A stretch of 64,000 bases of DNA, taken from assembly GCA_028285525.1 (NCBI GenBank), contig JANQOZ010000102.1, positions 21,888 to 85,887 of the forward strand, in the 5' to 3' direction. Shown here in pieces: positions 1,910-34,855 of this stretch. The position numbers and the translations under genes are program-made. The DNA is from Lysobacterales bacterium (GTDB lineage Bacteria > Pseudomonadota > Gammaproteobacteria > Xanthomonadales > SZUA-38). Numbering within the stretch: position 1 is the first letter of the stretch; each line of letters opens with the position of its first letter. The notes below the pieces were generated by a model. The model did no database searches. It worked only from the letters and a program-made list of their open reading frames with translations, and was not told the DNA's origin.

Positions 1910-1985
1910 GCCGGCATAGCTCAGTTGGTAGAGCAACTGATTTGTAATCAGTAGGTCCCGGGTTCGACTCCTGGTGCCGGCACCA
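1910..1985 (+). tRNA. tRNA-Thr (anticodon UGU)
   Basis: 76-nt cloverleaf read by hand: acceptor GCCGGCA/TGCCGGC, D arm GCTC-AGTTGGTA-GAGC, anticodon arm ACTGA-TTTGTAA-TCAGT (anticodon TGT), variable AGGTC, T arm CCGGG-TTCGACT-CCTGG, encoded CCA. Confidence 0.93.
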
Positions 1986-2257
1986 ATAAAATCAGCAGCT
2001 TACGTAGTTTTCGGGCATTTTTCAGGACTAATATAACTCGCTTAAACGCTCTGAATACCGCCACAACTTCGTGAATTGGCCTACCGCGTCACAATAAGCG
2101 CGAGCCACTGATTTTATTCCGGCTTTGCTCATCAGATCTCATCAACGCTAGTTGCCCTTTCACGCCCCAAATTTTTGGGACCGCGACCAAGTGCCAAAAC
2201 AGGCAAACACTGCAATTGTAAGACCGACCCGGCACTTAGTCCTGGACCCTAAGATTC
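1986..2257 (+). repeat. conserved post-tRNA module, copy A (att arm-like)
   Basis: About 270 nt directly after the tRNA, alignable by eye with 5051-5288, 30413-30683 and 34586-34855. The shared core is AGCGCGAGCCACTGATTTT.TTCCGGCTTTGCT.ATCAGATCTC..CAACGCTAGTTGCCCT.TCACG, followed by a GGGACCGCGACCAAGTGCC...GGCACTTAGTCCTGGACCC inverted pair. Confidence 0.8.
2177..2249. repeat. REP2-type palindrome (copy a)
   Basis: Inverted arms GGGACCGCGACCAAGTGCC (2177-2195) and GGCACTTAGTCCTGGACCC (2231-2249). It abuts the stop codon of the 2258-2866 gene. Confidence 0.75.
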
Positions 2258-2866
2258 CTAGACATCGCGAAATCCGAACCCTGTAAGCCCCGCCCGCTTA
2301 ACCAAACCAAAGAACTCCGATGTAGCAAAATCGCGGTTTAATTCGTATTTCCAAGCCGGAAGGCGAAAAACATACTTCGACTTGACCTTGTCGAGGTCAT
2401 AGTCAGGAAATCTCGGGAGGCGAAACCTCCCGTCCCCCAAATAGCCTGGTTTGAGTTGATTACTCGGTACGTCGATAGGGTCCGAAATACAAGTAATCCA
2501 AAAAACAAAATACCGTCCCTCGCAGCCGCGGATGGTCGTTTCGACGAATGAAGCTTCAGCACCGAGCTCGGGCAAGAGAACATCGCGAGCCTTTTCCGAC
2601 ACTACACTAACGAACCCTTCGCAGAAAAAGAATGGGGTCTCACTTGAAAATACCATGTGACAATCGAGAAAGACCGAATCCTTGGTTCCCTTTTGCCATC
2701 TAAAAGCAAGATCGCCAAGCGCGACCGGAGTTGAGGTACGTGCCCACGGCTGCTGATTAGTTCGATCAACTGATATCGGATATTCGAGCTCGACTTCATC
2801 CAACTCCACGTCGCCGAAGAGCCTGATTTGCTCTCCGTCACCAGAGAATCTGTATAACTTTGTCAA
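2258..2866 (-). CDS. Imm11/DUF1629-like immunity protein (orphan)
   Basis: 202-aa ORF with a TTG start. The layout is typical of DUF1629/Imm11: ...VVSEKARDVLLPELGAEASFVE..., a central GRYFVFWITCISDPIDV, and a C-terminal KYVFRLP....ATSEFFGLVKRAGLTGFGF. Lower GC (about 47% in a sampled line) than the flanks. Family assignment is from memory of family signatures, not a search. Confidence 0.55.
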   Translation of the reverse strand: MTKLYRFSGDGEQIRLFGDVELDEVELEYPISVDRTNQQPWARTSTPVALGDLAFRWQKGTKDSVFLDCHMVFSSETPFFFCEGFVSVVSEKARDVLLPELGAEASFVETTIRGCEGRYFVFWITCISDPIDVPSNQLKPGYLGDGRFRLPRFPDYDLDKVKSKYVFRLPAWKYELNRDFATSEFFGLVKRAGLTGFGFRDV

Positions 2867-2868
2867 AG

Positions 2869-3060
2869 TTAAGGGCTCTTCTTAGGCGAAAGCAAGTCAA
2901 GTAAACCACTGGAACCGACGCGCATTTCTTCCTGAATGATGTTCATAACCCTACGGATTTCATCAGCACCACCTTTGGCGTCGGCTTGCCTAATCGATAC
3001 CGGGGTCGGCTCCTGCCCCGCAACATTCCGGGCACAAACGGGAACGAGACGGTATGAATT
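2869..3060 (-). pseudogene. possible toxin C-terminal stub upstream of the Imm11-like gene
   Basis: Open frame leaves the REP2 arm (translated ALGPGPKNS), runs about 60 codons (...GGADEIRRVMNIIQEEMRVGSSGLLDLLSPKKSP) and ends at a TAA 2 nt before the TTG start of 2258-2866. This is the same tight spacing as the Rhs/immunity junction. No family recognised. Confidence 0.3.
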
Positions 3061-3148
3061 CTTGGGGCCAGGACCAAGTGCCCGATACGGCCAAGCGCGC
3101 CTACGGCACACCGACTTGGTACTTGGTCCTTGCCCCTAGGGTTCTTGG
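3056..3148. repeat. REP2-type palindrome (copy b, best preserved)
   Basis: GAATTCTT-GGGGCCAGGACCAAGTGCC (3064-3082), a 35-nt loop, then GGTACTTGGTCCTTGCCCC (3118-3136)-TAGGGTTCTTGG. Confidence 0.8.
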
Positions 3149-3179
3149 ACTGACCTGGGAATTACGTTTCCGGATGCGA

Positions 3180-3752
3180 TCATGAGACCCACGGATCCTC
3201 TTCCCAAAACCGTGTTTTCAAACAAAAACCCCTGAGCCCGGATTCAACAACCCGATTTTTAAACCTCTCCGAAACATAAACTGTCGTGCTGCTGTCTGGA
3301 AGCACGAATGCATCCGCATCACCGATGATCCCGGTGTCAAAAACCCAGCTTTCAACATTAGCGAAAAGGTCAGGCGTGGATCCATATTTCTGGAGTGGGC
3401 CCTGTGACTTCTGTCGGTCAATGCAATCGAGCTGCGTCTTAACAACCACCATGAAAAATGAATCATCCGAGGCATCAGCAGTCACTAACGGATACAGAAT
3501 CGCATGCCGACTCCAAATATCTGAGAGAACCTCAGCAGCCTTGGCGCTAACTAGATTTACGAGTCGGGACATAGGAGCATCGGTATTGACCCTACGTGCC
3601 CCGCGGCAAACGACCTGAGGAGGGGTCCAATCCTCGAGATCTGGTAGCGGCTCACCAAGTAATGGATCATGCCAAAGCAGCCATCTATCGTCTGATTCGG
3701 TCGATCCCACAAAATCGACTGCGTCCTCTGGAGCTGACCATCTGTAGTACAT
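3180..3752 (-). CDS. Imm11/DUF1629-like immunity protein (orphan, second copy)
   Basis: 190-aa ORF with an ATG start. Same layout as 2258-2866: LVSAKAAEVLSDIWSRHAILYPL, DDSFFMVVVKTQLDCIDRQKS, DAFVLPDSSTTVYVSERFKNRVVESGLRGFCL. Confidence 0.5.
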   Translation of the reverse strand: MYYRWSAPEDAVDFVGSTESDDRWLLWHDPLLGEPLPDLEDWTPPQVVCRGARRVNTDAPMSRLVNLVSAKAAEVLSDIWSRHAILYPLVTADASDDSFFMVVVKTQLDCIDRQKSQGPLQKYGSTPDLFANVESWVFDTGIIGDADAFVLPDSSTTVYVSERFKNRVVESGLRGFCLKTRFWEEDPWVS

Positions 3753-4051
3753 CGCTCGCCCTACTGCGCTCGCCGGTTAAGAGGCGCAAGGTTGTTGTTT
3801 AGCATTATTAGGGCCAGTAACAACTGCCACATCCGGCCATGCGTGCCTATGGCAGATTGACCTCGTAGATCGTCCTGACCCCAAAGATTCATCATGCGCC
3901 GAATTGCCAAACGCTTTGGCGCGCATTACAGCACGGCCAGTTCCGCCCTCATGGCATGATTGTGGCAATGCAAGAATTCGCATCTTTGCGAATAGTGACC
4001 CCGAATGGAAAACTCATAATAGTCGTTATGGCATCGATACCGCGGTTCTCA

Positions 4052-4711
4052 TTACATGACTAACGAGGATGCACCGATACCTTTTAGGAACTTTTTGTGG
4101 GCTGTCTCCCGACATACCTGTTCCCGGATATCTTGCTCGAGTTTGGTTTTGAACTCATCCTGTGGACTTCCACTCAGCTTGTGGAAGTAGCTGTTTGCAC
4201 ACGAAAAATTACCGGCCACTACTTGGTATCCAATCATACCCATGAGCCGCAAGGGCGTCTCTTTCCGCGAAACAAAGTCACCAACGAGCTCGAAAGGCTC
4301 CGGTGGGTGGTCTATTTCGCCGAGTAGGTACCGATATACTTCGATCATATTAGTAGAAGCGGAAAAAGCACTTATCCAGTTTCGTAGATGGCCAAGAAAT
4401 GCATGATTACCATCATCCCTAGATCCAAACTTCCAAAGTGAAACTGTTCCTTTCCCAAATGTCGACCGGAGTGAACCATCTGCCATGAGCCGATGATACT
4501 CAAAAGGCGACATCAGAAATCCACTCTCGCCGGCATAGTAGTAGACGCCAAGCGACACTTGGTAACCACCGCTCTTTCTCCCGAAATAAAGCGCAGCATA
4601 TGCGGGGACGCGGGCAATCTGAGCTTGGTAGTAGTTTAGAGAGTCGCGACCAAAACCGATCTGAAAAAGCTCGTCTTCGAGCCGTTTTGGTGCTTTGCTT
4701 GCTTTCGCCAT
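4052..4711 (-). CDS. hypothetical protein (cassette gene)
   Basis: The ORF track gives 4052-4798, but the first 29 codons read through the REP2 arm (LALFPGTKNS). The first ATG (MAKASKAPK) is at 4711, giving 219 aa. No family recognised. Confidence 0.55.
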   Translation of the reverse strand: MAKASKAPKRLEDELFQIGFGRDSLNYYQAQIARVPAYAALYFGRKSGGYQVSLGVYYYAGESGFLMSPFEYHRLMADGSLRSTFGKGTVSLWKFGSRDDGNHAFLGHLRNWISAFSASTNMIEVYRYLLGEIDHPPEPFELVGDFVSRKETPLRLMGMIGYQVVAGNFSCANSYFHKLSGSPQDEFKTKLEQDIREQVCRETAHKKFLKGIGASSLVM

Positions 4712-4739
4712 CAGTCGGCAACGTGAACTGTCGTCATTA

Positions 4740-4822
4740 GAATTCTTGGTGCCAGGAAAGAGTGCCAGATCCGACCAAGCGCGCCAACAGCAGACCAACC
4801 TGTTGCTTGGTCCTGTCCCTGA
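4740..4822. repeat. REP2-type palindrome (copy c, degenerate)
   Basis: GAATTCTTGGTGCCAGGAAAGAGTGCC ... GCTTGGTCCTGTCCC; same architecture as 3056-3148 with mismatches. Confidence 0.6.
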
Positions 4823-4825
4823 ACC

Positions 4826-5003
4826 ACCCCGAATTCACCGTAGAGTTTTTGGTTTGAGCGCCGGAAGATGCTCTTTGGCCTAATATTCCTGAGGCTGGAG
4901 TGGGTGTTTCCAGGCCTTTCGATGAGTTTTGCCGAGTTATATTAGGCCTCAATACTCTATTAACCAATTGTTTTTATTATCTTTTATGGGTTTTTGCGGT
5001 TCG
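4826..5003 (+). repeat. conserved pre-tRNA' module, copy B (att arm-like)
   Basis: Alignable with 10771-10948 and, more loosely, with 30239-30365 and 34415-34538. Contains the 72-nt hairpin 4877-4948 and an AT-rich spacer. Confidence 0.8.
4877..4948 (+). repeat. 72-nt imperfect hairpin GGCCTAATAT...ATATTAGGCC (copy B)
   Basis: Perfect 10-bp outer stem GGCCTAATAT/ATATTAGGCC. Inner GGCTGGA...TCCAGGCC stem with a bulge. Conserved core GGTGTTTCCAGGCCTTTCG. Confidence 0.8.
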
Positions 5004-5050
5004 GATGTGTAATCAGTAGGTCCCGGGTTCGACTCCTGGTGCCGGCACCA
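5004..5050 (+). repeat. tRNA-Thr 3'-half direct repeat (copy B)
   Basis: 47 nt matching tRNA positions 30-76 with 1 mismatch (GATGTG vs GATTTG), including CCA. Confidence 0.9.
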
Positions 5051-5288
5051 ATAAAAGCAATGGGTTACGACATTTTCGGGCGTTTTTCACGCCTAATATA
5101 ACTCGCTGAAACCCTCTGAATTCCGCCACAAACTCGTTAATCGAGCTACTGAGTCAGAAAAAGCGCGAGCCACTGATTTTTTTCCGGCTTTGCTTATCAG
5201 ATCTCTTCAACGCTAGTTGCCCTCTCACGTCCCGAATTTTTGGGACCGGGACCAAGTTTCCAAAACAGGCAAGCGCGGCAACTGTACG
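5051..5288 (+). repeat. conserved post-tRNA module, copy B
   Basis: Same conserved core as 1986-2257. The right arm of its REP2 pair is missing. Confidence 0.75.
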
Positions 5289-5812
5289 TGAGCGATCAGC
5301 GAGCCACGCCTTGACCACGTCGCTGGTTATGCGTTCCCCCGCGGACGAACTAGGCAAAGCCGGCGGCAACAAAACCCGTTCCAGATCGCTCTCGCCCACA
5401 TTCCACGGCAACAGCGCGTCGATGTTTTTCCCCGCCCGAGGTAACTCGCTGAACACATAGATGAGCGGCGCAACGGTCAGCGGGAATGAGTCCGCCACGG
5501 CGGTGGTCGTCACTGGCGGCGTGTTCTCCGTCCTGCTCGATTTAGGCGGTAGGCTCCCTCCGGCATCGTCGATCCGAAGGCGGCCAACCATTTTGCTCAG
5601 GCCGAATACTTGGTAGGGCCAGCCGATTTGCTGGCTGCTGACGGGTTTGAGTAACCGGGGTGACCGACGTCTAAAACATCGCAGGTGGGGTGTGATAACG
5701 TCCGCACAGAAAATCTGGACAGCAGCGGCCAGCGATGCACCGGCATTTTCGGAGAAGCCATGCAACGCTGGACCATTCATAATGGCTGTCAGGCCACCAA
5801 AGGACGCGCGCT

Positions 5813-6643
5813 TTGGACCCACTGCAAAAACTGACCACTACCTTACTCGTCGTCACGATAAGTTTGCTGGCGTTCGTGGCCACCGGCCAGTCGATCTTTG
5901 CCGACGGTTTTGAGGCGCCGGACTTGCCTGACATTCCGATCACCTCGGAGCCCACCTCCGCGCGGCAGTCTGCATGGCCGCTAGGTTCAACCAACGCTCA
6001 GCAAGGGTATTATGAGTACCTTCCGCCGGGTTACTCCGCGGCGCAGCGCTATCCGCTACTGATCTTCATCCACGGGTTGGGTGAAAACGGCAACGGGGAT
6101 GAAGATCTCTCCCGCGTGCTTCGCAATGGCCCGCCCCGGCTGATTGATCGGGATCAGTGGGACGCCACCCTTCCGTTTGTGGTGTTGTCGCCCCAGCACG
6201 GCGGCGGCGGCTGCACATCAAGCGGTGAAATCGATGCGTTAATCAGCTTTGCACTTGACCAATACGCCATCAATCCCGATCGGGTTTACCTCACCGGATT
6301 AAGCTGCGGCGCTATCGGGAGCTGGAGCTACGCCGAAAGTTTTGTCAACGAGGCCATCGCCGCGATGGTGCCCATCGCGGGAAATGGCACCGGCGCATTT
6401 AACCGCGCCGGGTGCGCCCTGGGCGCGCTGCCTATCTGGGCATTCCACGGGGACGCCGATACGGTGGTGAACGTGTCCGGTACCATCACGCCGATCAACA
6501 ACCTGCTGGCCTGCGATCCGGCACCCCTCAACGTGATGATGACCATTTATCCCGGCGTGGCGCACAACTCCTGGAGCCGAACCTACGACGGCAGCGCTGG
6601 CCACGATATCTACGCCTGGATGCTGCAGTTCAGCCGCCCATAG
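5813..6643 (+). CDS. secreted alpha/beta-hydrolase esterase (PHB-depolymerase/CE1-like)
   Basis: 276-aa ORF with a TTG start. Signal peptide LLVVTISLLAFVATGQS, then SIFADGFE. YPLLIFIHGLGENGNG, nucleophile elbow G-L-S-C-G (GLSCGA), and FHGDADTVV. Confidence 0.7.
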   Translation: MDPLQKLTTTLLVVTISLLAFVATGQSIFADGFEAPDLPDIPITSEPTSARQSAWPLGSTNAQQGYYEYLPPGYSAAQRYPLLIFIHGLGENGNGDEDLSRVLRNGPPRLIDRDQWDATLPFVVLSPQHGGGGCTSSGEIDALISFALDQYAINPDRVYLTGLSCGAIGSWSYAESFVNEAIAAMVPIAGNGTGAFNRAGCALGALPIWAFHGDADTVVNVSGTITPINNLLACDPAPLNVMMTIYPGVAHNSWSRTYDGSAGHDIYAWMLQFSRP

Positions 6644-6853
6644 TTAACTGCAAGGCAGCGACAGCCCCGCAACTGCAACAATCGTCGGGTTTAGATTGGT
6701 GTGACGCGCCGCTCGAAATGCTGTGTGGGCCTTGCGAATGCAGGCCTTTTTAGCGCGACACTCAAGGTTTGAGGGGATCGCTAAGGAGTTCAGTTCCCTA
6801 TTTTGGTCGGACCGATTCGCGCCTCATTGAAATAGTAAAATCCGTAATGGGTT

Positions 6854-7543
6854 TTAGTCTGAATCCGGACCAAGCCAGCCAAACGCCTCAACAAACTTGG
6901 CTCGGGCGTTATCTTCGATAATCTGGTCATGCGCCAACACGATACGTTCCACTGGCCATGCGAGCATTTCTTCGATCGACCGCTTGAAGGCTGCTTGGCT
7001 CTTGACCATTAGTCTCATGGTTCGCGACATCGCAACCTTGTCATATACACCGAGCAGCTGTGCCACTATTTGGACCAAGCCGAAAGACCTCGGCGAAAAA
7101 GAAAATAGTAAATCCGTGGCGAATAAGGTTCTGGACTCCCGGTGAAACCAGACGGTCTCGTTGATCACCGGTAATCCCTCAATAAAGACTGCTTCTAAAT
7201 CGTTTGACCAGAGTTTGTGCGTAGCTGGATCAAGTTCATCGATGCCCATGAGTTCTGGAATCTTCTCAGCAAGGCCAGGAGCCAAGAAACCCCGAGCAGT
7301 TGGGAATTGATCGAGGAACTGCGAGAAAAACAAATGATGGGTCTTGTTCGGGGCAACGACGTATCGAACGGTACCAATCTCTGCCAGCTGTTCCCTGTTG
7401 GCTTCGCTAAGTGGGACAGGTGAGTGAACCCATATATCTCCGTTTGAAAGACGTATGTAGGTTGCTCGATTAGTGAGCCCCAATGGCCCAAAGCGGACCT
7501 CATGTAGCGAATGCCAAATCTGACCGCTCACAATCTGTTCCAT
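6854..7543 (-). CDS. DUF4336-like protein (metallo-beta-lactamase-fold family)
   Basis: The ORF track starts at 7624; the likely start is the ATG at 7543 (MEQIVSGQIW). Motifs RLSNGDIWVHSPVPL and VRYVVAPNKTHHLF match my recollection of DUF4336. Confidence 0.6.
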   Translation of the reverse strand: MEQIVSGQIWHSLHEVRFGPLGLTNRATYIRLSNGDIWVHSPVPLSEANREQLAEIGTVRYVVAPNKTHHLFFSQFLDQFPTARGFLAPGLAEKIPELMGIDELDPATHKLWSNDLEAVFIEGLPVINETVWFHRESRTLFATDLLFSFSPRSFGLVQIVAQLLGVYDKVAMSRTMRLMVKSQAAFKRSIEEMLAWPVERIVLAHDQIIEDNARAKFVEAFGWLGPDSD

Positions 7544-7873
7544 GGTTACCACCTTATTGCTTGAGCAGGCCGTTTTCCTACCGCCGGAGGTTAGAATGAG
7601 ATTGCTTGCGAGTTTTCCTGACAAACCCTAGGAAACCGGCCGAACGAGGCGTGCAAATATGGCCTTCAGTGCGTGTAGCGAAAATCCGATTCGCAGCATA
7701 CACAAACTCCCCGTTTGGCCAGAAGGTCTTCGATATCTCGATGGCTAAGATTGAATCGGTGTTAGAGTCAGACCGCGGAGCTGATGATTTCAGGCGGGAA
7801 CCGGTGTCGTTTGCGGATGCCGATCGCCGGCTGAGTTAACTTGGCAGTACCATCTTGAGCCTGCGGTGGCCAC

Positions 7874-9346
7874 TTAAAACGCTCCATCATCACATCCCAG
7901 GGCCTCACTAAATGCCAATCGCGACAGCAGCTGATCTCCGGCCTCCAATTCGGGAATTACGAGTTCAAATTCAAAGGCAAGCTCATCGCAGCTGATGGTC
8001 GTTATCGTTCCCTGCCCCACTCGGTTCGCGGTTACGCTTCCCTCAAGCCGCCCAGCATTTGTAAATGGCCCCCGGTTGCGAAACAACTCTAGAGAAATTT
8101 CGTTGCCTTGCGGAGAACCCAGGCCGTAGAGCCACAGGTTATTCCCATCGCGATCAAACGTCTGCCAGGTCACTAGGACCTCCGACGGCCTGACGTATGA
8201 GACCTGCAGGTAGGCACCGTCGCGATCGGGCTCAAACCACAAACCCGTGACCACCCCGACGCTGGCTGGCGGCGGTGAGTTCGTCTCCACCGCGCCAGCG
8301 TCGCAGCGGCTGGCGTTGATCAGACGCGGGTGGCCGCGCTGGTCCAACGAGACGCAGTTTTGTGCTGCCACACGCCCACGCGCCGGATGATCCGGCGTCA
8401 GAGGCACAACCCGCCGGTAGCCGGAGGTTATCGGCGGGAGTACGAAAGCTGTCGCGGCATCCACCGCGTCGTTGCTAACCAATTCGGCCACGCACTCCGG
8501 GGCTGAAAAAACGTTGTCGCCCGAGGACTGGATATCGCCGGCGCAGGCGGCGTTAACCTGGCCGGACACAATACTCTGCCCGACTACCACTTGCCCCTCC
8601 GGCGCGTTGAAAATACTGGTGACCAGGCACTCTGACAGGTCGCGCGCGACAAACTGCATGCCGAAGGTGACGTGGCGCAGCTGCGCTGCGCCGGTGTTGT
8701 AAAGCGCCATGCCGCCCGCCAGGCAAAAGCTGAAGGGCTCCTGAGGAAAAGTACCTGGCTTAAAGTCCGCGATCAGGTTGAAAAGACTCACGTTAACCGC
8801 CTCCAGGCGGCCGGAGTTGTAGATCCCCAGGCCCGGCAGCGTTGCGCTGTTGACGCCCGGCGCTGCTTCAAATTCCGCTCGAACACCACTGATGGAAACG
8901 CGTTCCAGCCGAGTCCGCCCCCGGTTTTCGATCGCCCTGATTTGCGGTGTGCCAGTCAGGTTGATATCCACGTCCGCCAGCGTGACTTCAGCCTGTTCCC
9001 GTATCTCAAATCCGATTCCCCGGAGCTCAGAGCCCCGCCCATTGAGGAACAGCTTTCGGTCCAGCTGATAAGGCTCCCCAAGAGCCAGGCCCCCACGACG
9101 CAAACAGGAGCCAAAGGGCCCCATTTTTTGATCGCCGGGGAATACGGATACCCTCGGGCCGCGGCCGGGAAATTCGTAAAAGCCATCAACAGCTAGAATG
9201 ACGCGAACGGGTTCGTCCGCTACGTTCGCCTGGCAGAGCGCCGTGCTCAGCGCTTCCACATCGCCGTTCTCGATCACAAACGTGGACTCGGCCAGACCTG
9301 GCAGCGGTAGCAGGCTCAGCAGAAGCGTAGTCAACGACAGTTTCAT
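7874..9346 (-). CDS. secreted hypothetical protein
   Basis: Likely start is the ATG at 9346 (MKLSLTTLLLSLLPLPGLAES signal peptide). Beta-helix-like N-terminal half. C-terminal GLWFEPDRDGAYLQVSYV...VTWQTFDRDGNNLWLYG domain. Confidence 0.6.
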   Translation of the reverse strand: MKLSLTTLLLSLLPLPGLAESTFVIENGDVEALSTALCQANVADEPVRVILAVDGFYEFPGRGPRVSVFPGDQKMGPFGSCLRRGGLALGEPYQLDRKLFLNGRGSELRGIGFEIREQAEVTLADVDINLTGTPQIRAIENRGRTRLERVSISGVRAEFEAAPGVNSATLPGLGIYNSGRLEAVNVSLFNLIADFKPGTFPQEPFSFCLAGGMALYNTGAAQLRHVTFGMQFVARDLSECLVTSIFNAPEGQVVVGQSIVSGQVNAACAGDIQSSGDNVFSAPECVAELVSNDAVDAATAFVLPPITSGYRRVVPLTPDHPARGRVAAQNCVSLDQRGHPRLINASRCDAGAVETNSPPPASVGVVTGLWFEPDRDGAYLQVSYVRPSEVLVTWQTFDRDGNNLWLYGLGSPQGNEISLELFRNRGPFTNAGRLEGSVTANRVGQGTITTISCDELAFEFELVIPELEAGDQLLSRLAFSEALGCDDGAF

Positions 9347-9766
9347 CTCAGGGGCCCCTTCTTGGTTCCGGCGCAGTATGCCCACACCGAATGAACCGGC
9401 GATGAACGCCGCCGGGTCTCACCGCGCGGGACTTATCCTGTCCGCTTTTTCCGGCACTTTCGATGTGCTTTGGCCATGCTTAAGTAAGGACTACAAAGGA
9501 CCGCGCGAATGTGCCGTTTGCCCGCACTGCTTTTGCTTCTGTTTTTGCCGCTAGCAGGGAGCCGCCGCGGGTTTTCCGGAGATCATTCAGTGGGAGCATA
9601 AAAGCGTTGACCCTCCCGAACCGATTAGAACCGTCTCATTCCACACAACTAAAACGGTCTTCTAAATACCCAAGGTGATTCACGAGATGACGTGGGAATA
9701 CCTTTTCATGGTAGGCAGAACCTTCAGGTATGAAAGATCGAATTTCTCGAACTACCGTTTTGGGCC

Positions 9767-10770: not shown

Positions 10771-10948
10771 ACCCCGAGTTTTCCGTAGAGTTTCTGGATT
10801 GAGCGCCGGAAGATGCCCATTGGCCTAATATTCCTGAGGCTGGAATGGGTGTTTCAAGGCCTTTCGGTGAGTTTTGCCGAGTTATCTTAGGCCTCGAAAG
10901 TCTTTTACCTAATTGTTTTTATTGGCTTTTAAGGGTGGTCGCGCTTCG
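10771..10948 (+). repeat. conserved pre-tRNA' module, copy C
   Basis: Close match to 4826-5003. Includes the hairpin 10822-10893 (GGCCTAATATTCC...GAGTTATCTTAGGCC). Confidence 0.8.
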
Positions 10949-10995
10949 GATTTGTAATCAGTAGGTCCCGGGTTCGACTCCTGGTGCCGGCACCA
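10949..10995 (+). repeat. tRNA-Thr 3'-half direct repeat (copy C)
   Basis: 47/47 identity to tRNA positions 30-76. Confidence 0.92.
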
Positions 10996-24800: not shown

Positions 24801-27800
24801 CCGGAATGGTGTAATCGCTCGCCAGTACGTTCGTAGGGTAAACCTGGGCCGCATCGGTCGAGGCCGTCCGCTCGTTGAAGGCCATGACGGTAATCGGCGC
24901 ATCAGCGCCGACGTTCACGCCCACTGGATCAGGCGTTCCGTTGGTTCGGGTAACCACCGAAATTGGCAGCTCGATGCGCTCCAATCCACCCGCAGGAATC
25001 GTGAAAGGAATATCGATCGCCAGACTGGCCACGGAAATCGTGCCGCTCGCACCACCCGGCGCAGCAATTGACAGCGCCGGAACAGCAGGCGGGCCTGGGT
25101 CGATGTCATTCCGCAAGAACGTCAGCCAGAAGTCGGTGCCAAGGTAGCTGCGGTTAATCGTGGAGCCGGGTACCGTCACGACGTAGTCCTGCTCGGCGAA
25201 CGCGCCTTGCGGGTCGCTCGCTCTAACCCGCACATCCACTGCACCGAGCGTGTCCGAGAGGGGTACCCACGAAATGAGACCCGTCGCTGAGTCGATGCTC
25301 ATGCCCTGCGGGGCAATGACCAGCGAGTACGTCAGGCTGTCGCCGTCCGCGTCGCTCGCGTCCACGTCATAGGCGTAGGCTGCGCCTTCAGCCGCATCAA
25401 GCACCGGCGTCGAGATAATCTCGGGCGCCGAGTTGTTAACCTGGACGTCGAGGTTCACCACGGCGGCTGCCGAGTCCGCCTGCCCGTCACTGACCTGGAA
25501 GGTGAAAGAGTCGGGCCCCGAAAAGCCGCTATTGCGGGTGTAGGTCAGGTTGGGTGCCGTGCCCGTGAGCGTTCCACCCGCGGGAGAGACGACCACCTGA
25601 TAGGTGAGTGGATCACCGTCGACGTCCGATCCGGTGAGTGTCAGCGCAAGGCTCGCCTCAGTAACCACCAAACTCTGCGGGTCGGCGACCGGCGTATCGT
25701 TTTGCGCCGAAATCTGGACGGTAACGGTTGCCGGATCAGATTCGGCGATGCCGTCACTGACCGTGAAGCGGAACGTATCCTCGCCATTTTCATCTGCGTT
25801 TGGCAGATAGGTGAGGTTAGGCGGCGTACCGCTGAGCGTCCCTCGGAGCGGGGCCTGAGTAACGGCAAAGGATATGACGTCGCCATCGGGGTCCGTTCCC
25901 GCCAGCGTCAGCGCTACGGCAACGTCTTCGTTGGTACTAACAGAAAGGTCCTCAGCCGTCGGCGGGTCGTTGATCGGTTCAACCACCAGAGTGATGGTTG
26001 CAAGGTTGGAGTCTGCGGCCCCATCGTTAGCCACAAAGGTGAGCGAATCGGTGCCGCTAAATCCGGCGCTCGGCGTGTAGTCATAGTCTGATCCCCCGCC
26101 GACCAGAGTGCCGTTCGCCGGTGCGTCAACGATCGCGAAGGTCAGAAGGTCACCATCAGCATCGCTAGCGGTTAAGCGCACCATGGCAGTCGTATCTTCG
26201 GCCAGGTTAATCAAGTCGTCCTGCGCCAGCGGCAGGTCGTTGACTGCGGTAACCGTTAGCGTAACCGTGGCTCCCATTGAGCTGACGATTCCGTCAAACG
26301 CCTGGTAGGTAAACGAGTCGACACCGTTGAAATCCGGGTCAGGCGTATAAGTGAGATTTGGGCTTGTACCCGTCAATTCACCGTGTTCCGGCTGCGACGT
26401 GAGTGCGAACGTCAGCGCATCACCATCTTCATCGCTAGCGGACAAAACCACCGGCACCGACTCGTCTTCATTCAGCGTCTGGGCAATATCAACGGCGATC
26501 GGCGGGTCGTTCACCGCGTTGACGACAATCGACACCAACGCCGGAACTGAGTCACTGAGGCCGTCATTGGCCACAAAAGAAAAGCTGTCCGAGCCGCTAA
26601 AACCCGGATTGGGGGTGTAGATGAAGTCTGGACCATTCCCCGAAACCACTCCGTGGCTCGGCGGCGTAGACACGACAAAACTGAGCGATGCTGACTCCAC
26701 GTCGCTCGCGCTGACGCTCACCACAACGCTTGAGTCCTCTTCCACCACCGCCGATGCGCCGCTAGCTATCGGGATGTCGTTGACTGCTGAAATGGAAAGC
26801 GAAACGGTTGCTTCATTGGAATTGACGTTTCCGTCGTTTGCGACGTACGCAAAGCTATCAGCGCCGTTGAAATTCGGGTTTGGAGTGTACGTAAATTGCG
26901 GCCCGCTTCCCGAGAGAACGCCGTTCAGCGGTTGCGTAATGACCTGATAGGTCAGCGTATCCCCATCGATATCGTTGGCGATCACCGTGATGTTGGCGGT
27001 GTTGTCTTCTGCCAGAGTAACAACGTCGCTATTCGCCTCGGGCGAGTCATTCACCGGTGCCACATCGAGCGTTACGGTTGCAGCGTTCGAGTTGCTGGTT
27101 CCGTCGTTCGCCCGATAGGTAAAACTGTCACTACCGTTGAAATCCACGTTGGGAACATAGGTGAGATTTGGAGCCGTTCCTGACAAAACACCTGATCCCG
27201 GTGCAGTGAGTATCTCGAAGGTTAGCGGGTCACCTTCAGGGTCCGTAGCCGCCAGCGCTACGGCAGCGTTCGTGTCTTCATCCAGGTTGATCGTTTGATC
27301 AGTTGCGACTGGCGGCGAGCTCGCGCTGCCCACCTCAATCGTGATCGTGGCTACATTGGACGTCGCAGAGCCGTCGCTAACGGTGTAGGTAAAGCTGTCG
27401 GTACCGACAAAGCCAGCGTTGGGCGTATAGATCCGCTGTCCACTCACCTCGCTCACCGTGCCGTTTGCCGGAGCGCTGACTATCGTTACGGTAAGGCTGT
27501 CCCCGTCGACGTCAGTTGCGGTGTCCTCAAGAACGACGGGTACATCAACGTCGGTCGTGTAGGTCGCATCAAACGCAACCGGCGGATCGTTTACTCCACT
27601 GACTTTGAACGTCACGCTTGCGGGATTCGATGTTTGGCTGCCGTCGCTGGCCACGAAGAGGAAATGGTCCTGCCCAAAGAAGTCAGGATCCGGCTGGTAA
27701 GTCAGATTCGGCGGACTGCCAGTGAGGCTTCCGAACATCGGTTCTGATAAAACGGTAAAACTGAGGCTGCCTTGACCACCCGTTCCTGTCAGCGTTACCG

Positions 27801-29829: not shown

Positions 29830-30238
29830 GCGGTATTCCTGTAGCTAGATATGTGAGGAGGGCGTCAAGAAAATGTCGGGATAATGTTACCTTAGCAATT
29901 ATTTCAGATTTGTTACAAGCAAGCTGAAACGACTCGCCACATGGGCGATCGACTGTACGTAGAAGGCTCGGATAGGGGCATTTTTCGCCAGGTTTGTACT
30001 CCCGCAGACGTGCCACACACCGCTGCGGCAGCGGCCACATAAGCCACTGGCGGAAGGTCATGTTGACGGCAGAAACCAATGCGATAACCGTCTGCGAGGT
30101 CTTCGCGCACTGGACAACCGCTGCGATTGTCGAATGCTTTGCTTACGGCTCCCCCGCTACCTCAGACCACATCCAACAGAACGAGCTGATGTGCCTCAGG
30201 CCTACTCGCGGGGCGACTTCCCTCTGGAGAAGCTCGCC

Positions 30239-30365
30239 GGCCTAATACTCCGAGGGCTGGTACAGGGGTTTCAAGGACTTTCGGCGAGTTTCAGTGAGTT
30301 ATATTAGGCCGCCGGATGCCTTTAACCTCTTGTTTTATATAAATTTTTAGGGTTTTCGGGAACCG
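30239..30365 (+). repeat. conserved pre-tRNA' module, copy D
   Basis: Contains the hairpin 30239-30310 (GGCCTAATACTCC...GAGTTATATTAGGCC) and an AT-rich spacer. Confidence 0.75.
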
Positions 30366-30412
30366 GATTTGTAATCAGTAGGTCCCGGGTTCGACTCCTG
30401 GTGCCGGCACCA
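30366..30412 (+). repeat. tRNA-Thr 3'-half direct repeat (copy D)
   Basis: 47/47 identity to tRNA positions 30-76. Confidence 0.92.
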
Positions 30413-30683
30413 ATAACATCAAGGGTTTACGAAGTTTTCGGGCTTTTTTTTGGACTAATTAGACTCGCTGAAACGCTTTAAACACAGCCACAACCTCGTC
30501 AATCGAACTCTTCAGTCAAAAAAAGCGCGAGCCACAGATTTTTTTCCGGCTTTGCTCATCAGATCTCGACAACGCTAGTTGCCCTTTCACGTCACAGATT
30601 CTTGTGATCGGGACCAATTGCCGAAACAAGCAAAGGAGGCAACTGTAAGGCCGACCTCGCACTTGACCCTGACCCCAATTGAC
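30413..30683 (+). repeat. conserved post-tRNA module, copy D
   Basis: Shares the AGCGCGAGCCACAGATTTTTTTCCGGCTTTGCTCATCAGATCTC core. Ends in GGGACCAATTGCC...CGCACTTGACCCTGACCCC. Confidence 0.75.
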
Positions 30684-30694
30684 GCCGAATCGGA

Positions 30695-33595
30695 TCAGCC
30701 GCCGCAGCGTCCGGCTGACTCAGCTTCAAAGCCATCGATGAAAAGCGGCTGATCGTCGTCGAAGTTGGTCACGAAAATAGGCAATGGCATTAGATCACTG
30801 TACGCGGTGTCTTCGCTTTCAATAGCCAGGTTCAGAGTGACCGCAACCTCCAGATCACATTCGTCGTCGTTTTGCCCGATCAGCGTAACCGTTTGGGGCG
30901 TATTCCAATTTGACGAAGTGAAGGTAAAGCTATTGGCCAGCGCCTGAACTTCGGTCTCATCGGCTACAACAAGCGATACAACAACATCGTTTGCCGGTTC
31001 GCGGGCGAGCACCAATCGAAACGAGTCTTCCTGACCACTTTCCGAGGTCACCAACGGTCCATCGATCAGTAGATCCACCCTGGCCGACGCCGACGGTGTG
31101 TTGTCGAGAATCTCCACCTGATAGCTGAACGAGACTATCAAATCACCATCGGTGCCAAGTTCGATCAAAAAGTCCTCCGTTGGCTCGAAGGCCATGTTGT
31201 TGACGGTGTCTATGGCCAGGGGTTTCGCCGCCATATCGTTTGCTGTCCAGGACAGTACACCGGATCCCGCGACGTAGTCCGCACCCTCCTGCGCTGAGCC
31301 CGGCGTCACTTTGTAGGTAAGGGTGATGGCGCCATCCAGCGGCGGTCGGGGAACCTCCAGCGCTAGCGCCTCCCCTTCCCGCACGCGCACGACAGTTGGA
31401 CTGATCTCTGGCGTGTCCGGTGGATCCGACAAATAGATGCTGCCGTTGCCGCCTGACAACATCACGCGGCCGTCCGGCGTGACAACGGCATCGAAGAAAC
31501 GGCTGCTTCGATTTTCAACCTCGATTGGCGTAGTGCGCCAGGTGGTGCCGTCGTCGGCGCTGATCCAGACAATGGGTATTCTATTGGAGTTGCTCGTGCT
31601 GGTGCGCCTCGACCCCGGAGCAATGAGGCGGTCGCCCGCTTCAACGATTGGGCCGATCGTCCAGCCGAGAAACACTCCGTCGCCGCCGTTGACACCATCC
31701 AAATCTCGATATTCTCGAACCACCCAGCTGTCTCCCCGGTCGTCGCTAGTTAAGATCTCGCCCGAGTCTCCACGGATGATCAACCGGCCGGAGCGGGTCC
31801 TAAATATCTGCTCCAGATCGATAGTGGTGAGTTCCGGTGATTCGTCGGAAAACAAGAGTCCCTCGAGGCCATTGAAAGGCCTTTCAACTCGCCAGGTAAC
31901 GCCGTTGTCGTCGCTAACAACCAGTTCCGGGCTGAAGCTGAAGGAGGCGTTTTTGAGGTAGATGATGCGGCCGCCGCCAGCGTGAATGCCAAATTCCGGC
32001 GTGGAACCGAAGCCACCTACACCCTCGCGCTGGGTCCAGGTCTGGCCGTTGTCGTCGCTGGTAAAGAAATCAGCCTCCGGGCCAATGGTCCGATCTTCCG
32101 GGGCGATAATAAGACGCCCGTTTTGCCCTACGACAACGTCAATCAATACGCCCGTAGTTTCGGGGGAGGCAGGGTAAGGGAGTGCGGCCCAGGACTTTCC
32201 TTCGTCGGTACTGGTGATCACCTGGTTACCCTGCGCCGAAAACAGGCGATCGCCGCTTCCGCGAATTCGAGTAAACCCGGCAATGCCAGTTTGTTCTTGA
32301 AGATCGGCGAACTCAACCCAGGTCGCGCCGTTGTCGACGCTGGACCAGACCCGCTGCCGAAAGTCCTGGCCCAGCGCCAGAATGCGGTTGCCAACCCGAA
32401 ACGGGTTGCTCATGTTGGGTCCGGGATCCTGATCGAGAATTTTGGACCAAGAGCTGCCCCGGTTATCGCTGCGCCAGACCTCGTCGCTGTTGCCGACCGA
32501 GATTACGGTTTGATTGTCGATGGCTCCGACGCTGCCAAACCCCTCCCGTACCGTATCGTCGGCCACCATCCAATCGGCCCCGGTGGACGAGATTTGCGCA
32601 CCGCGGCCGCCCACACTGAGTAGCTGACCGTCAACGTTTAGCCAGTCCGGATAGAGTCGACTCAGCTCGGTTCCCGTCCAGTTGCGCCCGCCGTCGAACG
32701 GGTTGGGGCTTTCCAGCACAAAGTTGCGCACGGCAACGGCTTCGAACAGCTCCGGTATAGACTCCGACCGTCGGAAAAGCTGTGTCTGCATCACGTAGTT
32801 GCCGTTCAGAAAGGTTATATCGCTGCCGTTTAGCCCTTCTAGGACATCGGGCCCCAGCACGTTGCCGTCGACGTTGTACTGCGCCTCGCTCAAGCGGTAA
32901 CCGTTCCAGCCGCCGCCATCGGCGCTGTCCAGCACCGTTTGAAACCCCGCAGCGGCAAGTCGTGAACCGGTTTGCGCCATGGATTGCAGGGCCCCAAGCG
33001 AAAAATACATTTGTTGCCACGATGCTCCCATGCGCCGAAAGATTAGACCGCCGATGTAGAAGCCGCCAAAGCCATTGGAAAGCAGCGTTGTCCCGTAGGC
33101 GATCAGCCCTCCGCCAGGCGTCACAAAAAGGTGGGTCAGATAGATACCCGGAAACCGACCAACCGAAGCAATAGCCTCCCTTACAGGAAAGGTCTCAACC
33201 TGCCAGCTGCTGCCGTTGTCGATGCTGGAAATGATTTTTGTTTGCCCCTCAAACGGAATCTGAAACCGATTGCTTGAGGGAATCAAGCGGGTCGCAGTGC
33301 CGACGATCGTGTTACCGAGGAGCACCAGGTCGGTGACATTGCCGTCCAGCGGCTGTCCGTTCTCTAAAATGGTGTCGTAGCGCCAGTTGGCGCCGTTGTC
33401 GTCACTGATCATCAGCCGGCCACCGCCGCCGGCGGCGATCCAGCGGCCACTGGGTGTCGCCACAAAGGCGTTGTAGCTCAGTCCGGGACTCAGATCGCCC
33501 CGCACGCGAGTCCAGTTGTCGCCGAGAGCAGTTGAGGTCAGCGGCGCAATGAGCGCACCAGCAGCCAGTAGCGTTGAGATCAGCATGGCTTTCAT
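30695..33595 (-). CDS. secreted BNR/Asp-box repeat protein with Calx-beta domain (paralogue 1)
   Basis: 966 aa. Signal peptide MKAMLISTLLAAGALIAPLTSTA. Nine S.D.G.(T/S)W Asp-boxes (SDDNGANW, SIDNGSSW, SDNRGSSW, SVDNGATW, STDEGKSW, SDDNGQTW, SDDNGVTW, SDDRGDSW, SADDGTTW). Calx-beta-like GSAQEGADYVAGSGVLSW. C-terminus LFIDGFEAESAGRCGG. Confidence 0.8.
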   Translation of the reverse strand: MKAMLISTLLAAGALIAPLTSTALGDNWTRVRGDLSPGLSYNAFVATPSGRWIAAGGGGRLMISDDNGANWRYDTILENGQPLDGNVTDLVLLGNTIVGTATRLIPSSNRFQIPFEGQTKIISSIDNGSSWQVETFPVREAIASVGRFPGIYLTHLFVTPGGGLIAYGTTLLSNGFGGFYIGGLIFRRMGASWQQMYFSLGALQSMAQTGSRLAAAGFQTVLDSADGGGWNGYRLSEAQYNVDGNVLGPDVLEGLNGSDITFLNGNYVMQTQLFRRSESIPELFEAVAVRNFVLESPNPFDGGRNWTGTELSRLYPDWLNVDGQLLSVGGRGAQISSTGADWMVADDTVREGFGSVGAIDNQTVISVGNSDEVWRSDNRGSSWSKILDQDPGPNMSNPFRVGNRILALGQDFRQRVWSSVDNGATWVEFADLQEQTGIAGFTRIRGSGDRLFSAQGNQVITSTDEGKSWAALPYPASPETTGVLIDVVVGQNGRLIIAPEDRTIGPEADFFTSDDNGQTWTQREGVGGFGSTPEFGIHAGGGRIIYLKNASFSFSPELVVSDDNGVTWRVERPFNGLEGLLFSDESPELTTIDLEQIFRTRSGRLIIRGDSGEILTSDDRGDSWVVREYRDLDGVNGGDGVFLGWTIGPIVEAGDRLIAPGSRRTSTSNSNRIPIVWISADDGTTWRTTPIEVENRSSRFFDAVVTPDGRVMLSGGNGSIYLSDPPDTPEISPTVVRVREGEALALEVPRPPLDGAITLTYKVTPGSAQEGADYVAGSGVLSWTANDMAAKPLAIDTVNNMAFEPTEDFLIELGTDGDLIVSFSYQVEILDNTPSASARVDLLIDGPLVTSESGQEDSFRLVLAREPANDVVVSLVVADETEVQALANSFTFTSSNWNTPQTVTLIGQNDDECDLEVAVTLNLAIESEDTAYSDLMPLPIFVTNFDDDQPLFIDGFEAESAGRCGG

Positions 33596-33777
33596 GGATC
33601 ACCTTTTTGTCGAGGTCAACTTTTGAAGCGAAATCGGGCTTCAAAGGGGGTCAGGGCAGATCAGACCCGCGAGTAACCGGTGCAAGAACTTCAGGAATCC
33701 AGGAAATCTGGGGCAGGTGTTTAATTGCCGCTTTTTGGGCGTACAAGGCAAAGCGCTTTTGCGAGCAAGCGATAGCG

Positions 33778-33843
33778 AGACCACCGCGACTCGAATTCGA
33801 AGGCGCCCCTTATCATGTGACATCTCGCGGTAGTCGGCGTGAG
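33778..33843 (+). pseudogene. stub of a second IS200-like/Y1 transposase family
   Basis: 22 codons, RPPRLEFEGAPYHVTSRGSRRE, resemble the P-R-I-E-F-P-G-A-x-Y-H-V-x-S-R-G-N-R-R N-terminus of COG1943-type transposases. Nothing follows. Very short. Confidence 0.3.
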
Positions 33844-33889
33844 CTGAATCACCCTGGGTATTGCGGAGACCATCTCGTGTGAGCCTAAG

Positions 33890-34171
33890 TCAACCGTGCA
33901 AAGCCCGTTTGACTGCTTCTGGTTCTTTTTCCATGACCCTAAGCAGGGTATGCGACGCTCCGTCGGGCTTGCGTTCCCCCTGCTCCCACTTTTGAAGCGT
34001 TCGGACAGAAATCATCAGGAACTCCGCAAACTGTTTTTGCGACATGCCAAACTTCAGCCGAACCGCTTTCACTTCCGCAGGTGCAAACTCGTGGCGCTTA
34101 AGCGACCCTGGGCGATCTCGAAACTCCTTCAGCCCAGCGAGGATCTCAGCACCAATGTCTCTTTTGCTCAT
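33890..34171 (-). CDS. HTH (XRE/NadS-type) antitoxin
   Basis: 93 aa: MSKRDIGAEILAGLKEFRD...FGMSQKQFAEFLMISVRTLQKWEQGERKPDGASHTLLRVMEKEPEAV. This is the typical antitoxin partner of HigB-2/RelE-like toxins. Confidence 0.75.
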   Translation of the reverse strand: MSKRDIGAEILAGLKEFRDRPGSLKRHEFAPAEVKAVRLKFGMSQKQFAEFLMISVRTLQKWEQGERKPDGASHTLLRVMEKEPEAVKRALHG

Positions 34172-34333
34172 TCAGACACACCTCGAAGTGATTTCACCAA
34201 CTCTCGCATTGCCGTGATCGCGGCCGAGGAAAGATCGTCCGCTTCGCTTATAGAGCTGCAGCATATTGAACTGGTCGTCGTCGAAGTAGTCTTCTCGGAG
34301 ACTGGTAAACGCCGACGTTTCGATAAACCCCAT
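34172..34333 (-). pseudogene. HigB-2/RelE-like toxin remnant
   Basis: My own translation in a frame the ORF track does not report: MGFIETSAFTSLREDYFDDDQFNMLQLYKRSGRSFLGRDHGNARVGEITSRCV*. The first ~28 aa match the M.FIET..F.......DD.Y..LQ N-terminus of this toxin family. The rest is out of family and only 53 codons long. The stop is adjacent to the antitoxin ATG (TGAATG). Confidence 0.5.
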
Positions 34334-34414
34334 TGATCACCATTATACCCCAATGGGGCATAAATCGGCAATCAGCAGGGTGTGGCAGATTACGAACTTA
34401 GGAGTGGCCCTCTG

Positions 34415-34538
34415 TCCTAATATTCGTCAGGCTCGAGCAAGGGTTTCAAGGACTATTGATCTATTTCGGCGAATTTTGTTAGGCCGCCATATTTCCGTAA
34501 ATAACTGATTGATAGTTTTTACCGGTTTTCGCGGTTCG
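34415..34538 (+). repeat. conserved pre-tRNA' module, copy E
   Basis: Hairpin 34415-34485 (GTCCTAATATTCG...TTTTGTTAGGCC) and an AT-rich spacer. Most diverged copy. Confidence 0.7.
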
Positions 34539-34585
34539 GATTTGAAACCAGTAGGTCCCGGGTTCGAGACCTGGTGCCGGCACCA
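34539..34585 (+). repeat. tRNA-Thr 3'-half direct repeat (copy E, degenerate)
   Basis: 47 nt with 4 mismatches (TTTGAAACCAG and TTCGAGACCTGG). Confidence 0.85.
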
Positions 34586-34855
34586 ATAAATTCAACGGGT
34601 TACGTGGTTTTCGGGCGTTTTTCAGGCCCAGTTAAACTCGCTAAACCGCCCTGAATCCCGCAACAACTGTGTCAACTGTCCTACTGAGTCGCAATACGCG
34701 CGAGCCACTGATTTTCTTCCGGCTTGGCTTGTCAGATCTCATTAACGCTAGTTGCACTTTCACGTCCCAAATTTTTTGGGACCGCGACCAAGTGCCAGAG
34801 CAGGCAAGCGCGGCAAATGCAAGGCCGACCTGGCAATTGGCCCTGAACCCTATAG
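34586..34855 (+). repeat. conserved post-tRNA module, copy E
   Basis: ACGCGCGAGCCACTGATTTTCTTCCGGCTTGGCTTGTCAGATCTC core plus GGGACCGCGACCAAGTGCC...GGCAATTGGCCCTGAACCC. Confidence 0.75.

Follow-up and report, generated by a model that had tools for sequence, protein, structure and literature searches.

How does a chromosome come to carry five copies of the 3′ half of one tRNA gene in a row: did related mobile elements integrate there one after another, or does the locus capture gene cassettes by a system of its own? The question is raised by a 64,000-nt stretch of a Lysobacterales bacterium (GenBank assembly GCA_028285525.1, contig JANQOZ010000102.1, positions 21,888 to 85,887; hereafter the window), in which the end of a tRNA-Thr(UGU) gene recurs downstream of the gene itself. 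Between 1.9 and 45.1 kb lies what is probably a composite island, built up as related elements integrated site-specifically, one after another, into the 3′ half of the tRNA-Thr(UGU) gene. An initial annotation of the same sequence had described the repeats as attL/attR-type junctions of related elements accreted in tandem, with the flanking arms as attP arms. That description was supported by the divergence of cores and arms, the layout of a short motif, the homology of an integrase stub and a truncated sixth arm at the far end of the island.

A single tRNA-Thr(UGU) gene, with the anticodon TGT, was detected on the plus strand by ARAGORN and Rfam at 1910-1985. Its last 47 nt (tRNA positions 30-76) form core copy A, at 1939-1985 inside the gene, and recur on the plus strand at four further places, with the positions and mismatch counts first annotated: core B at 5004-5050 (one mismatch to the tRNA 3′ half, at tRNA position 33), cores C at 10949-10995 and D at 30366-30412 (no mismatch), and core E at 34539-34585 (four mismatches). 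The substitutions in cores B and E include tRNA positions 33 and 36, in the anticodon-loop segment. A core 13-mer had four matches in the window against 0.04 expected. No sixth core was found on either strand of the 64-kb window when up to 14 mismatches were tolerated, and there was no core or module in the 19 kb to the right of the array or the 10 kb to its left. The direct orientation of the five cores and their contiguity with the tRNA gene support accretion.

The cores lie in non-coding modules, in which a P arm precedes the core and a P′ arm follows it. Related arms upstream of cores B to E and downstream of cores A, B, D and E had been annotated initially and were recovered by repeat finding, MAFFT and self-BLAST. 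The tails named below resemble REPINs, paired repetitive extragenic palindromic (REP) sequences.

1910-1985, plus strand: tRNA-Thr(UGU) gene with core A (ARAGORN, Rfam); together with the following arm it acts as the attL of the array.
1986-2253, plus strand: P′ arm of unit 1, with the 175-nt arm, GGACTAATATAACTC at 2025-2039 and a REPIN-like tail at 2161-2253.
4864-5288, plus strand: module B, with P arm 4864-5003, core 5004-5050, P′ arm 5051-5224 and a partial REPIN tail 5226-5288.
10809-10995, plus strand: module C, with P arm 10809-10948 and core 10949-10995; no P′-family arm follows.
30226-30681, plus strand: module D, with P arm 30226-30365, core 30366-30412, P′ arm 30413-30587 and REPIN tail 30588-30681.
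34401-34855, plus strand: module E, with P arm 34401-34538, core 34539-34585, P′ arm 34586-34760 and REPIN tail 34761-34855.
44991-45063, plus strand: truncated sixth P arm, found by nhmmer, at a G+C shift and before a Ser/Thr kinase gene.

In per-arm global alignments the 140-nt P arms B and C were 86% identical, and the remaining pairs among B, C, D and E 64-69%. Arms B, C and D were gapless over the 140 nt, arm E carried two 2-nt indels, and the likeness of arm C to arm B reached back to about 10765. The P′ arms following cores A, B, D and E were 74-84% identical over 175 nt, without a gap in any of the four; beyond each lies a palindromic tail of ~95 nt, for a whole P′ arm of ~270 nt. These gapless lengths point to a constraint on spacing. 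Module E is the most decayed. The tail of every P′ arm is a doublet, ~85-95 nt long, of inverted REP-like half-sites.

The arms do not encode protein: no frame was open in all copies, and the variable sites were spread over the codon phases (19/23/16 and 22/28/22). We considered whether the arms might be coding sequence or remnants of integrase pseudogenes, and rejected this on the lack of a conserved open reading frame (ORF) and of any tblastn match, unlike the arm of the L066 islet described below. Rfam recognized only the tRNA in the window and no RNA family in the arms, and RNAalifold on the four P′ arms gave a covariation term that was essentially nil (+0.31).

The motif GGCCTAATATAACTC was matched nine times in the window (0.59 expected), and all but one of these matches lay inside modules. 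Its offsets are fixed, at about −127 from the core start (plus strand), about −70 (minus strand) and +40 past the core end (plus strand). The P arm thus holds the motif twice as an inverted pair and the P′ arm once, and the +40 copy is present also after the real tRNA gene. In module B, for example, the copies lie at 4877-4891 (plus), at 4934-4948 (minus) and, in the P′ arm, at 5090-5104. In modules B and D the core is enclosed by an inverted repeat of 23-27 nt. Short sites that recur at set positions in the two arms are the arm-type binding-site layout of the attP of lambda-type tyrosine integrases. The fixed positions of the motif in both arms and the strict spacing therefore indicate an attP-type arm layout, and by analogy GGCCTAATATAACTC is a likely candidate for an arm-type binding site of the integrase. 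The upstream arms had also been credited with a 72-nt hairpin, which was not upheld. The structure is a 10-nt inverted repeat, GGCCTAATAT / ATATTAGGCC, around a 52-nt spacer that lacks consistent pairing, and its fold z-scores (−1.8, −2.7, −0.4 and −0.7) are unconvincing for a hairpin. As a motif of 10-23 nt it is found once more in the P′ arm, ~40 nt past the core.

Identity among the cores was 43-47 of 47 positions, against 64-86% in the adjacent arms. Cores conserved so much better than their arms are expected of distinct elements that were each constrained to match the tRNA, and are not expected from duplication in situ followed by neutral decay. Conserved cores, indel-free arms and unrelated cargo together suggest several related but distinct elements, whose att sites were functional while they diverged.

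The array does not end with the fifth core. A profile of the four P arms detected, with nhmmer (E = 5e-6), a sixth, partial P arm at 44991-45063 on the plus strand, comprising the left half only and followed by no core. It coincides with a rise in G+C from 0.49-0.55 to 0.57-0.61, and the ATG of the Ser/Thr kinase gene lies 65 nt past it. This arm places the right end of the island at ~45.07 kb and not at 34.9 kb. The island is ~43 kb long and runs in five units from the tRNA gene (1.9 kb) to ~45.1 kb; the sixth P arm is the remnant of its terminal attR, the remainder of which has been deleted. As the array runs on to this arm at 45 kb, the empty site envisaged in the initial annotation, the tRNA gene followed directly by the terminator at 11020, is doubtful. 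Kinase genes near tRNA-Thr in three relatives were considered as a conserved right flank and rejected, the matches being generic (28-34%) and inconsistent in position. The five units are as follows.

1986-5003, unit 1, 3.0 kb: small minus-strand genes, Imm11.
5051-10948, unit 2, 5.9 kb: hydrolase, DUF4336, Rap1a.
10996-30365, unit 3, 19.4 kb: integrase stub, scars of REP-associated tyrosine transposase (RAYT) units and insertion sequences (IS), RHS protein.
30413-34538, unit 4, 4.1 kb: first BNR protein, helix-turn-helix (HTH) protein.
34586 to about 45065, unit 5, 10.5 kb: second BNR protein, RAYT-like unit 2, unknowns.

A scheme for the formation of this island can be drawn from the lambda/P4-type integration model. 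An incoming circular element would carry an attP in which a P arm and a P′ arm flank a 47-nt copy of tRNA positions 30-76, and a tyrosine integrase would recombine this attP with the tRNA gene or with a resident core. The crossover would probably fall within the anticodon-loop portion of the core or close to it, since identity starts at tRNA position 30; this placement also draws on the known sublocation preferences of tRNA-targeting integrases. Repeated rounds would give a chain of the form tRNA-P′...P-core-P′...P-core, and because the elements carry attP, each internal junction would resemble a complete attP. The tRNA gene indeed carries a P′ arm only and the far end a P arm only, as accretion predicts. 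Units 1, 2, 4 and 5 would correspond to cis-mobilizable elements (CIMEs). Unit 3 would have kept the C-terminal third of an integrase, the remainder having been destroyed by a RAYT-like, IS200-type element, and deletion of the terminal attR would have left half a P arm. With the integrase dead, cores B and E substituted and the terminal attR gone, the array in this genome is most likely frozen and immobile, unless some other locus encodes a matching integrase.

Scans with Pfam, NCBIfam and PHROG found no integrase, relaxase or conjugation gene in units 1, 2, 4 and 5, and tblastn with three integrases found no integrase remnant there. The proposal that the units are integrase-less islets accordingly holds for four of the five. 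The further statement that no intact recombinase is present was correct for integrases but not for transposases, as the island contains two intact RAYT-like Y1 (IS200-type) genes and an IS3 rve remnant. The remaining unit, unit 3, contains an integrase stub, which lies among transposase scars.

10996-11203, plus strand: left flank of unit 3, without similarity to the P′ arms; it carries a terminator-like hairpin at 11020-11038.
11783-12661, plus strand: RAYT-like Y1 transposase unit 1, gene 11942-12586, with inverted REPs GGGGTCAGGTTCAAGTGCCAGGC on both sides.
12666-12863, plus strand: C-terminal remnant of an IS3-family transposase (rve_3, E = 2e-23).
14054-14416, minus strand: putative tyrosine-integrase stub, the C-terminal ~120 codons or about the last third; the N-terminal part is missing.
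14403-14929, plus strand: RAYT-unit remnant, internally deleted to a left end and two right ends; it abuts and truncates the integrase gene.

The stub retains the beta-hairpin K, QDIR in place of HxxR (H to Q), the His of LLGH and the catalytic Tyr, and has lost the first R box by truncation. The integrase has been inactivated by a RAYT-like (IS200-type) insertion plus deletion. A 318-aa protein from a metagenome-assembled genome (MAG) of Rhodanobacter (locus L023) matched the stub by tblastn at E = 2e-9, with 34% identity in the multiple alignment. In Pfam the L023 protein matches Phage_integrase (E = 7e-12); it ends in PVKPVR like the stub, its HDLR box corresponds to QDIR, and a 3′-half-only copy of the identical 47-nt core lies 133 nt downstream of the end of its gene. 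The integrase of locus L031 (Pfam E = 2e-9), which directly follows a 3′-half core copy, was 25-29% identical to the stub (pairwise E = 6e-5), and the stub reads toward the core on its left, as in the L031 layout. From these similarities the stub appears to belong to a loose group of integrases physically associated with this attachment site. With the stub as query, a word-index search for homologues recovered nothing but the stub itself, a HMMER search of 1.8 billion representatives gave three weak, repetitive matches, and the matches of a PDB sequence search were spurious.

The exact 47-mer was found in species-representative genomes, in 107 stretches that belong to Woeseiaceae, Rhodanobacter, Lysobacterales and Elongatibacter. 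These stretches contain 109 core copies: 92 in full tRNA genes, 13 as 3′ halves only and four cut by the end of the locus. The 3′-half-only copies indicate that this is a recurrent attachment site. Nine of the 13 share a P arm of a second family, ~125 nt long, in which the motif TTCTAAGAA stands at −125 and −55, with up to three more copies past the core. The second-family arm was seen upstream of 3′-half copies in L012, L017, L031, L032, L034, L038, L051, L066 and L094, and the cargo of this family, in Woeseiaceae and related MAGs, varies among hipBA, parE, fic and large surface proteins.

At L066 (MAG casp150-mb.9, JAQCAD010000032.1, 467-2811) a 2.3-kb hipBA islet stretches from the tRNA-Thr gene to a 3′-half copy, in the order tRNA, P′ arm with the last 30 integrase codons, hipA, hipB, P arm, core, terminator. 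It is a minimal toxin-antitoxin islet left by the decay of an element. In L031 the order is tRNA, a 5.3-kb integrase-less cassette, core and integrase, and in L032 it is ParE, P arm, core and Fic. Within Woeseiaceae and related MAGs, toxin-antitoxin and conflict genes have a hot spot at the tRNA-Thr(UGU) gene.

Several observations weigh against accretion of integrase-bearing elements at this locus. Units 1, 2, 4 and 5 carry no integrase remnant and so give no sign that each of them once lost an integrase, and unit 3 opens with a terminator and unrelated sequence in place of a P′-family arm. The stub had no Pfam match and only a weak PHROG integrase match (E = 0.005), and its tie to the arms of the window is circumstantial. 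No element combining the arms of the window with an intact integrase was found in genome, metagenome or viral collections. Three arm patterns, including TCAGATCTCNNNAACGCTAGTTGC and TTAGGCC-N48-62-core, had 0 matches in these contig collections, and BLASTN and nhmmer detected no similarity between the 107 core-bearing loci and the arms of the window, the flank after core C or the region upstream of the tRNA gene. The best homologue of the flanking 470-aa protein was 50% identical, and no syntenic relative that shows polymorphism of the units or an empty site was found. Exact-protein look-ups gave nothing beyond short Logan contigs of the same sample, broken at the repeats. The best match to purU was 95% identical, on a 2.3-kb contig, followed by one at 75% and by Lentisalinibacter salinarum at ~63%.

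The irregular start of unit 3 can be accounted for in several ways. Core C is followed by unrelated sequence that holds the terminator-like hairpin at 11020-11038, the only good intrinsic terminator of the region. Elements that replace the 3′ end of a tRNA commonly carry a terminator of their own. It is possible that the unit had a different left arm, and also possible that a deletion at the RAYT scar joined two units and took the integrase N-terminus with it. The least economical option is that 10996-11780 is original chromosomal flank and the DNA to its right arrived otherwise, because the sixth P arm, at 45 kb, is oriented like the others. The terminator is enclosed by an 18-nt inverted repeat, 11003-11020 / 11096-11113 (AATATTTTCAGTAAGTTA / TAAGTCACTGAAAATATT), which may belong to a left arm of a different type.

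Other histories were weighed against tandem accretion. The units could instead form a living platform, integron-like in its handling of conflict genes, on which an integrase from elsewhere in the genome or from a visiting element excises and reinserts cassettes, any segment between two cores circularizing with a complete attP. Three cores are perfect, the arms are free of indels with conserved motifs, four units have no integrase scar, the cargo is rich in immunity-type genes (Imm11, Rap1a) and includes an RHS toxin, and L031 pairs an integrase-less cassette with an integrase-bearing neighbour. We nevertheless consider such a platform unlikely, as there is no intact integrase in the 64-kb window or the 10 kb upstream, the anticodon-loop segment is substituted in cores B and E, the terminal attR is deleted, and the RAYT and IS scars point to decay; conservation of the arms can also predate integration. 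That the locus is an active integron-like platform of a poorly sampled gammaproteobacterial lineage, where a trans-encoded tyrosine integrase shuffles multigene cassettes between the tRNA-derived cores and so stockpiles conflict genes (an Rhs toxin, orphan immunity genes and genes of toxin-antitoxin type), seems to us quite improbable. Nor was the initial suggestion of an undescribed cassette-capture system sustained, as the geometry is explained by accretion of CIMEs and the hallmarks of integrons are absent. Integrons, and clusters of attC sites lacking an integron integrase (CALINs), are recognized by intI, by attC sites with R′′/R′ AAC...GTT boxes and a paired stem, and by mostly single, promoterless ORFs in one orientation. 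The array does resemble them in lining up gene-carrying units between copies of a recurrent site with an inverted repeat and no adjacent integrase. Identity with them was rejected, however: Pfam scans found no intI, there is no attC architecture, the motif GGCCTAATAT/ATATTAGGCC ends in AAT/ATT and not AAC/GTT and has an unpaired interior, and the units are multigenic and of mixed orientation. The site in the window is a tRNA-derived att site of the double-strand type, with arms.

Amplification of a single unit in situ by unequal crossing-over, with its cargo replaced later and no repeated integration, would fit the per-module and per-element divergence patterns equally well, and would suit both the REPIN-like tail shared by all four P′ arms and the paralogy of the two BNR genes. 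It is very improbable all the same. The cores are far better conserved than the arms, the cargo is unrelated save for the BNR pair, which is itself inverted relative to the arms, and no known mechanism swaps whole cargo yet keeps the exact arm length. The REPIN-like doublet of the distal P′ arm, which is related to the REPs of the RAYT-like genes resident here, and the similar doublets between genes elsewhere in the window might also suggest that the 0.45-kb module is a small non-autonomous mobile repeat, similar to miniature inverted-repeat transposable elements or REPs, which contains a tRNA fragment by chance and bounds no element. We give this very little credence, since all modules share one orientation downstream of the tRNA gene with none outside the island, the tRNA gene has a P′ arm and no P arm, as integration predicts, and neither terminal inverted repeats nor target duplications are seen. 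Short-read Logan contigs from the same sample do break at cores (L001 ends at 1937; L109 spans ~10967-11875), as they would if the repeated 47-mer had misled the assembly of the unit order. Such an artefact is scarcely credible, as the arms beside the cores differ by 14-35%, which k above 47 or long reads would resolve, and the source contig is 90 kb long.

Successive integration, the history we prefer, has precedents. CIMEs, and tandem accretion of elements related to ICESt1 and ICESt3, have been described in Streptococcus thermophilus (Pavlovic 2004, Bellanger 2011, as cited in PMC5704250). These units are bounded by attL/attR-type direct repeats of the target 3′ end, lack integration and transfer genes, and become tandem by integration into a resident att site, with attP-like internal junctions. 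The present array likewise has contiguous direct repeats of the target 3′ end in the orientation of the gene (five plus-strand copies, 1939-34585). Its arms are retained and related between units, except that unit 3 has no P′ arm and the last unit no core, and integration and transfer genes are absent from units 1, 2, 4 and 5, with the stub alone in unit 3. It differs from the S. thermophilus CIMEs in its target (tRNA-Thr), its host (an uncultured gammaproteobacterium), its five units in a row and the dead state of the neighbouring integrase. No conjugation or mobilization genes were recognized in its units, so that descent from an integrative and conjugative element or an integrative and mobilizable element is not shown.

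Many tandem islands downstream of one small-RNA gene, with direct repeats of its 3′ end, are known at ssrA in Dehalococcoides, where 15 islands without an integration module were proposed as CIMEs (PMC3146451). There too the repeats carry extra conserved sequence around them (PMC3146451). The Dehalococcoides islands have the serine recombinase DsiB, a 20-bp tmRNA repeat and reductive-dehalogenase cargo (PMC3146451), whereas the window has a 47-nt tRNA repeat, only a tyrosine-integrase stub, and arms of ~140 and ~270 nt. The islets at L066, L031, L032 and L023 share with the window the identical 47-nt core, conflict cargo (hipBA, parE, fic), integrase-less units and tandems, and the arrangement of two motif copies in the P arm with further ones in the P′ arm. 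Their arms and the motif TTCTAAGAA are nonetheless unrelated in sequence to those of the window, and their integrase gene abuts the core. L066 retains an integrase remnant, whereas the four integrase-less units of the window do not.

We conclude that the array is a further example of a known process, the tandem accretion of islands, and not a new kind of system; it leaves the understanding of how such elements work unchanged. As an example it is clean and, with five units at a tRNA gene, unusually long, and it comes from an uncultured lineage with arms absent from the collections searched. Positions 30-76 of tRNA-Thr(UGU) are a landing pad shared by several unrelated att/integrase families in Woeseiaceae, Rhodanobacter and relatives, where the cargo consists mostly of conflict genes. 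The locus is useful for annotating island boundaries, and it offers a set of candidate att sites in which the arm motifs are clearly laid out.

Apart from the BNR pair, the five units have no related cargo in common. Conflict-type genes in the cargo include the immunity-type Imm11 and Rap1a genes and the presumed RHS toxin.

2258-4798, minus strand: cargo of unit 1, an Imm11 immunity-family protein (3180-3752) and small proteins of no assigned family.
5289-10764: cargo of unit 2, the genes on the next four lines plus small ORFs.
5813-6643, unit 2: alpha/beta hydrolase.
6854-7624, unit 2: DUF4336 protein.
7874-9385, unit 2: 503-aa protein with a choice-of-anchor Q domain.
9767-10228, unit 2: Rap1a immunity-family protein.
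15158-29829, minus strand: RHS cargo of unit 3, a 4675-aa RHS-repeat/cadherin/Big_9 protein (15802-29829) and a downstream gene (15158-15799).
30695-33595, minus strand, unit 4: first BNR/Sortilin/Calx-beta protein.
33890-34171, minus strand, unit 4: HTH_3/MqsA-like protein, just upstream of the P arm of module E.
34856-44990, mixed strands: cargo of unit 5, comprising the BNR gene, RAYT-like unit 2, four minus-strand genes of no assigned family and a trio at 41880-43998.
34669-38106, plus strand, unit 5: ORF of the second BNR protein, homologous to the first from residue 188.
38106-38959, unit 5: RAYT-like unit 2, with an intact gene at 38265-38909.
~40845-41016, unit 5: RAYT right-end fragment.
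41880-42461, plus strand, unit 5: HTH repressor-like gene (RstR/DicA-like).
42497-43099, plus strand, unit 5: nucleoside 2-deoxyribosyltransferase-family gene.

The 4675-aa protein of unit 3 (15802-29829, minus strand) comprises 13 Big_9 domains, cadherin-like domains, an IgGFc-binding domain, FG-GAP domains and 14 RHS repeats. The 213-aa product of the gene downstream of it, 15158-15799, matches no family; the gene is presumed, from its position, to be the immunity gene. The HTH_3/MqsA-like protein of unit 4 could be an antitoxin or a regulator of the element. The plus-strand trio of unit 5 (41880-43998) is operon-like; its third gene, which extends to 43998, has a weak, sub-threshold Sel1 match, and the trio might be a defence-type module.

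The two BNR paralogues are 62% identical over 966 residues and form an inverted duplication symmetric about ~34402, the start of the P arm of module E. Their orientations relative to the arms are opposite in units 4 and 5. An inverted copy of module E, opposite the axis of this duplication, was looked for and not found.

REPIN-like doublets separate the genes of unit 1 (3056-3140, 3804-3886, 4741-4821), and one more lies between genes at 41641-41729. Their half-site resembles GGGGTCAGGTTCAAGTGCCAGGC, the REP flanking the two RAYT-like genes. The Y1_Tnp matches of these two genes had E = 8e-15 and 5e-13; the best NCBIfam model, REP_Tyr_transpos, scored 65 and 63 bits, below its 80-bit cut-off, and inverted REPs flank both genes. 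RAYTs are usually described as single-copy and vertically inherited. Within 30 kb the RAYT-like unit of this island is present as two full copies, whose proteins are 94% identical, one deleted copy and one right-end fragment, and it behaves more like an active insertion sequence than a typical RAYT.

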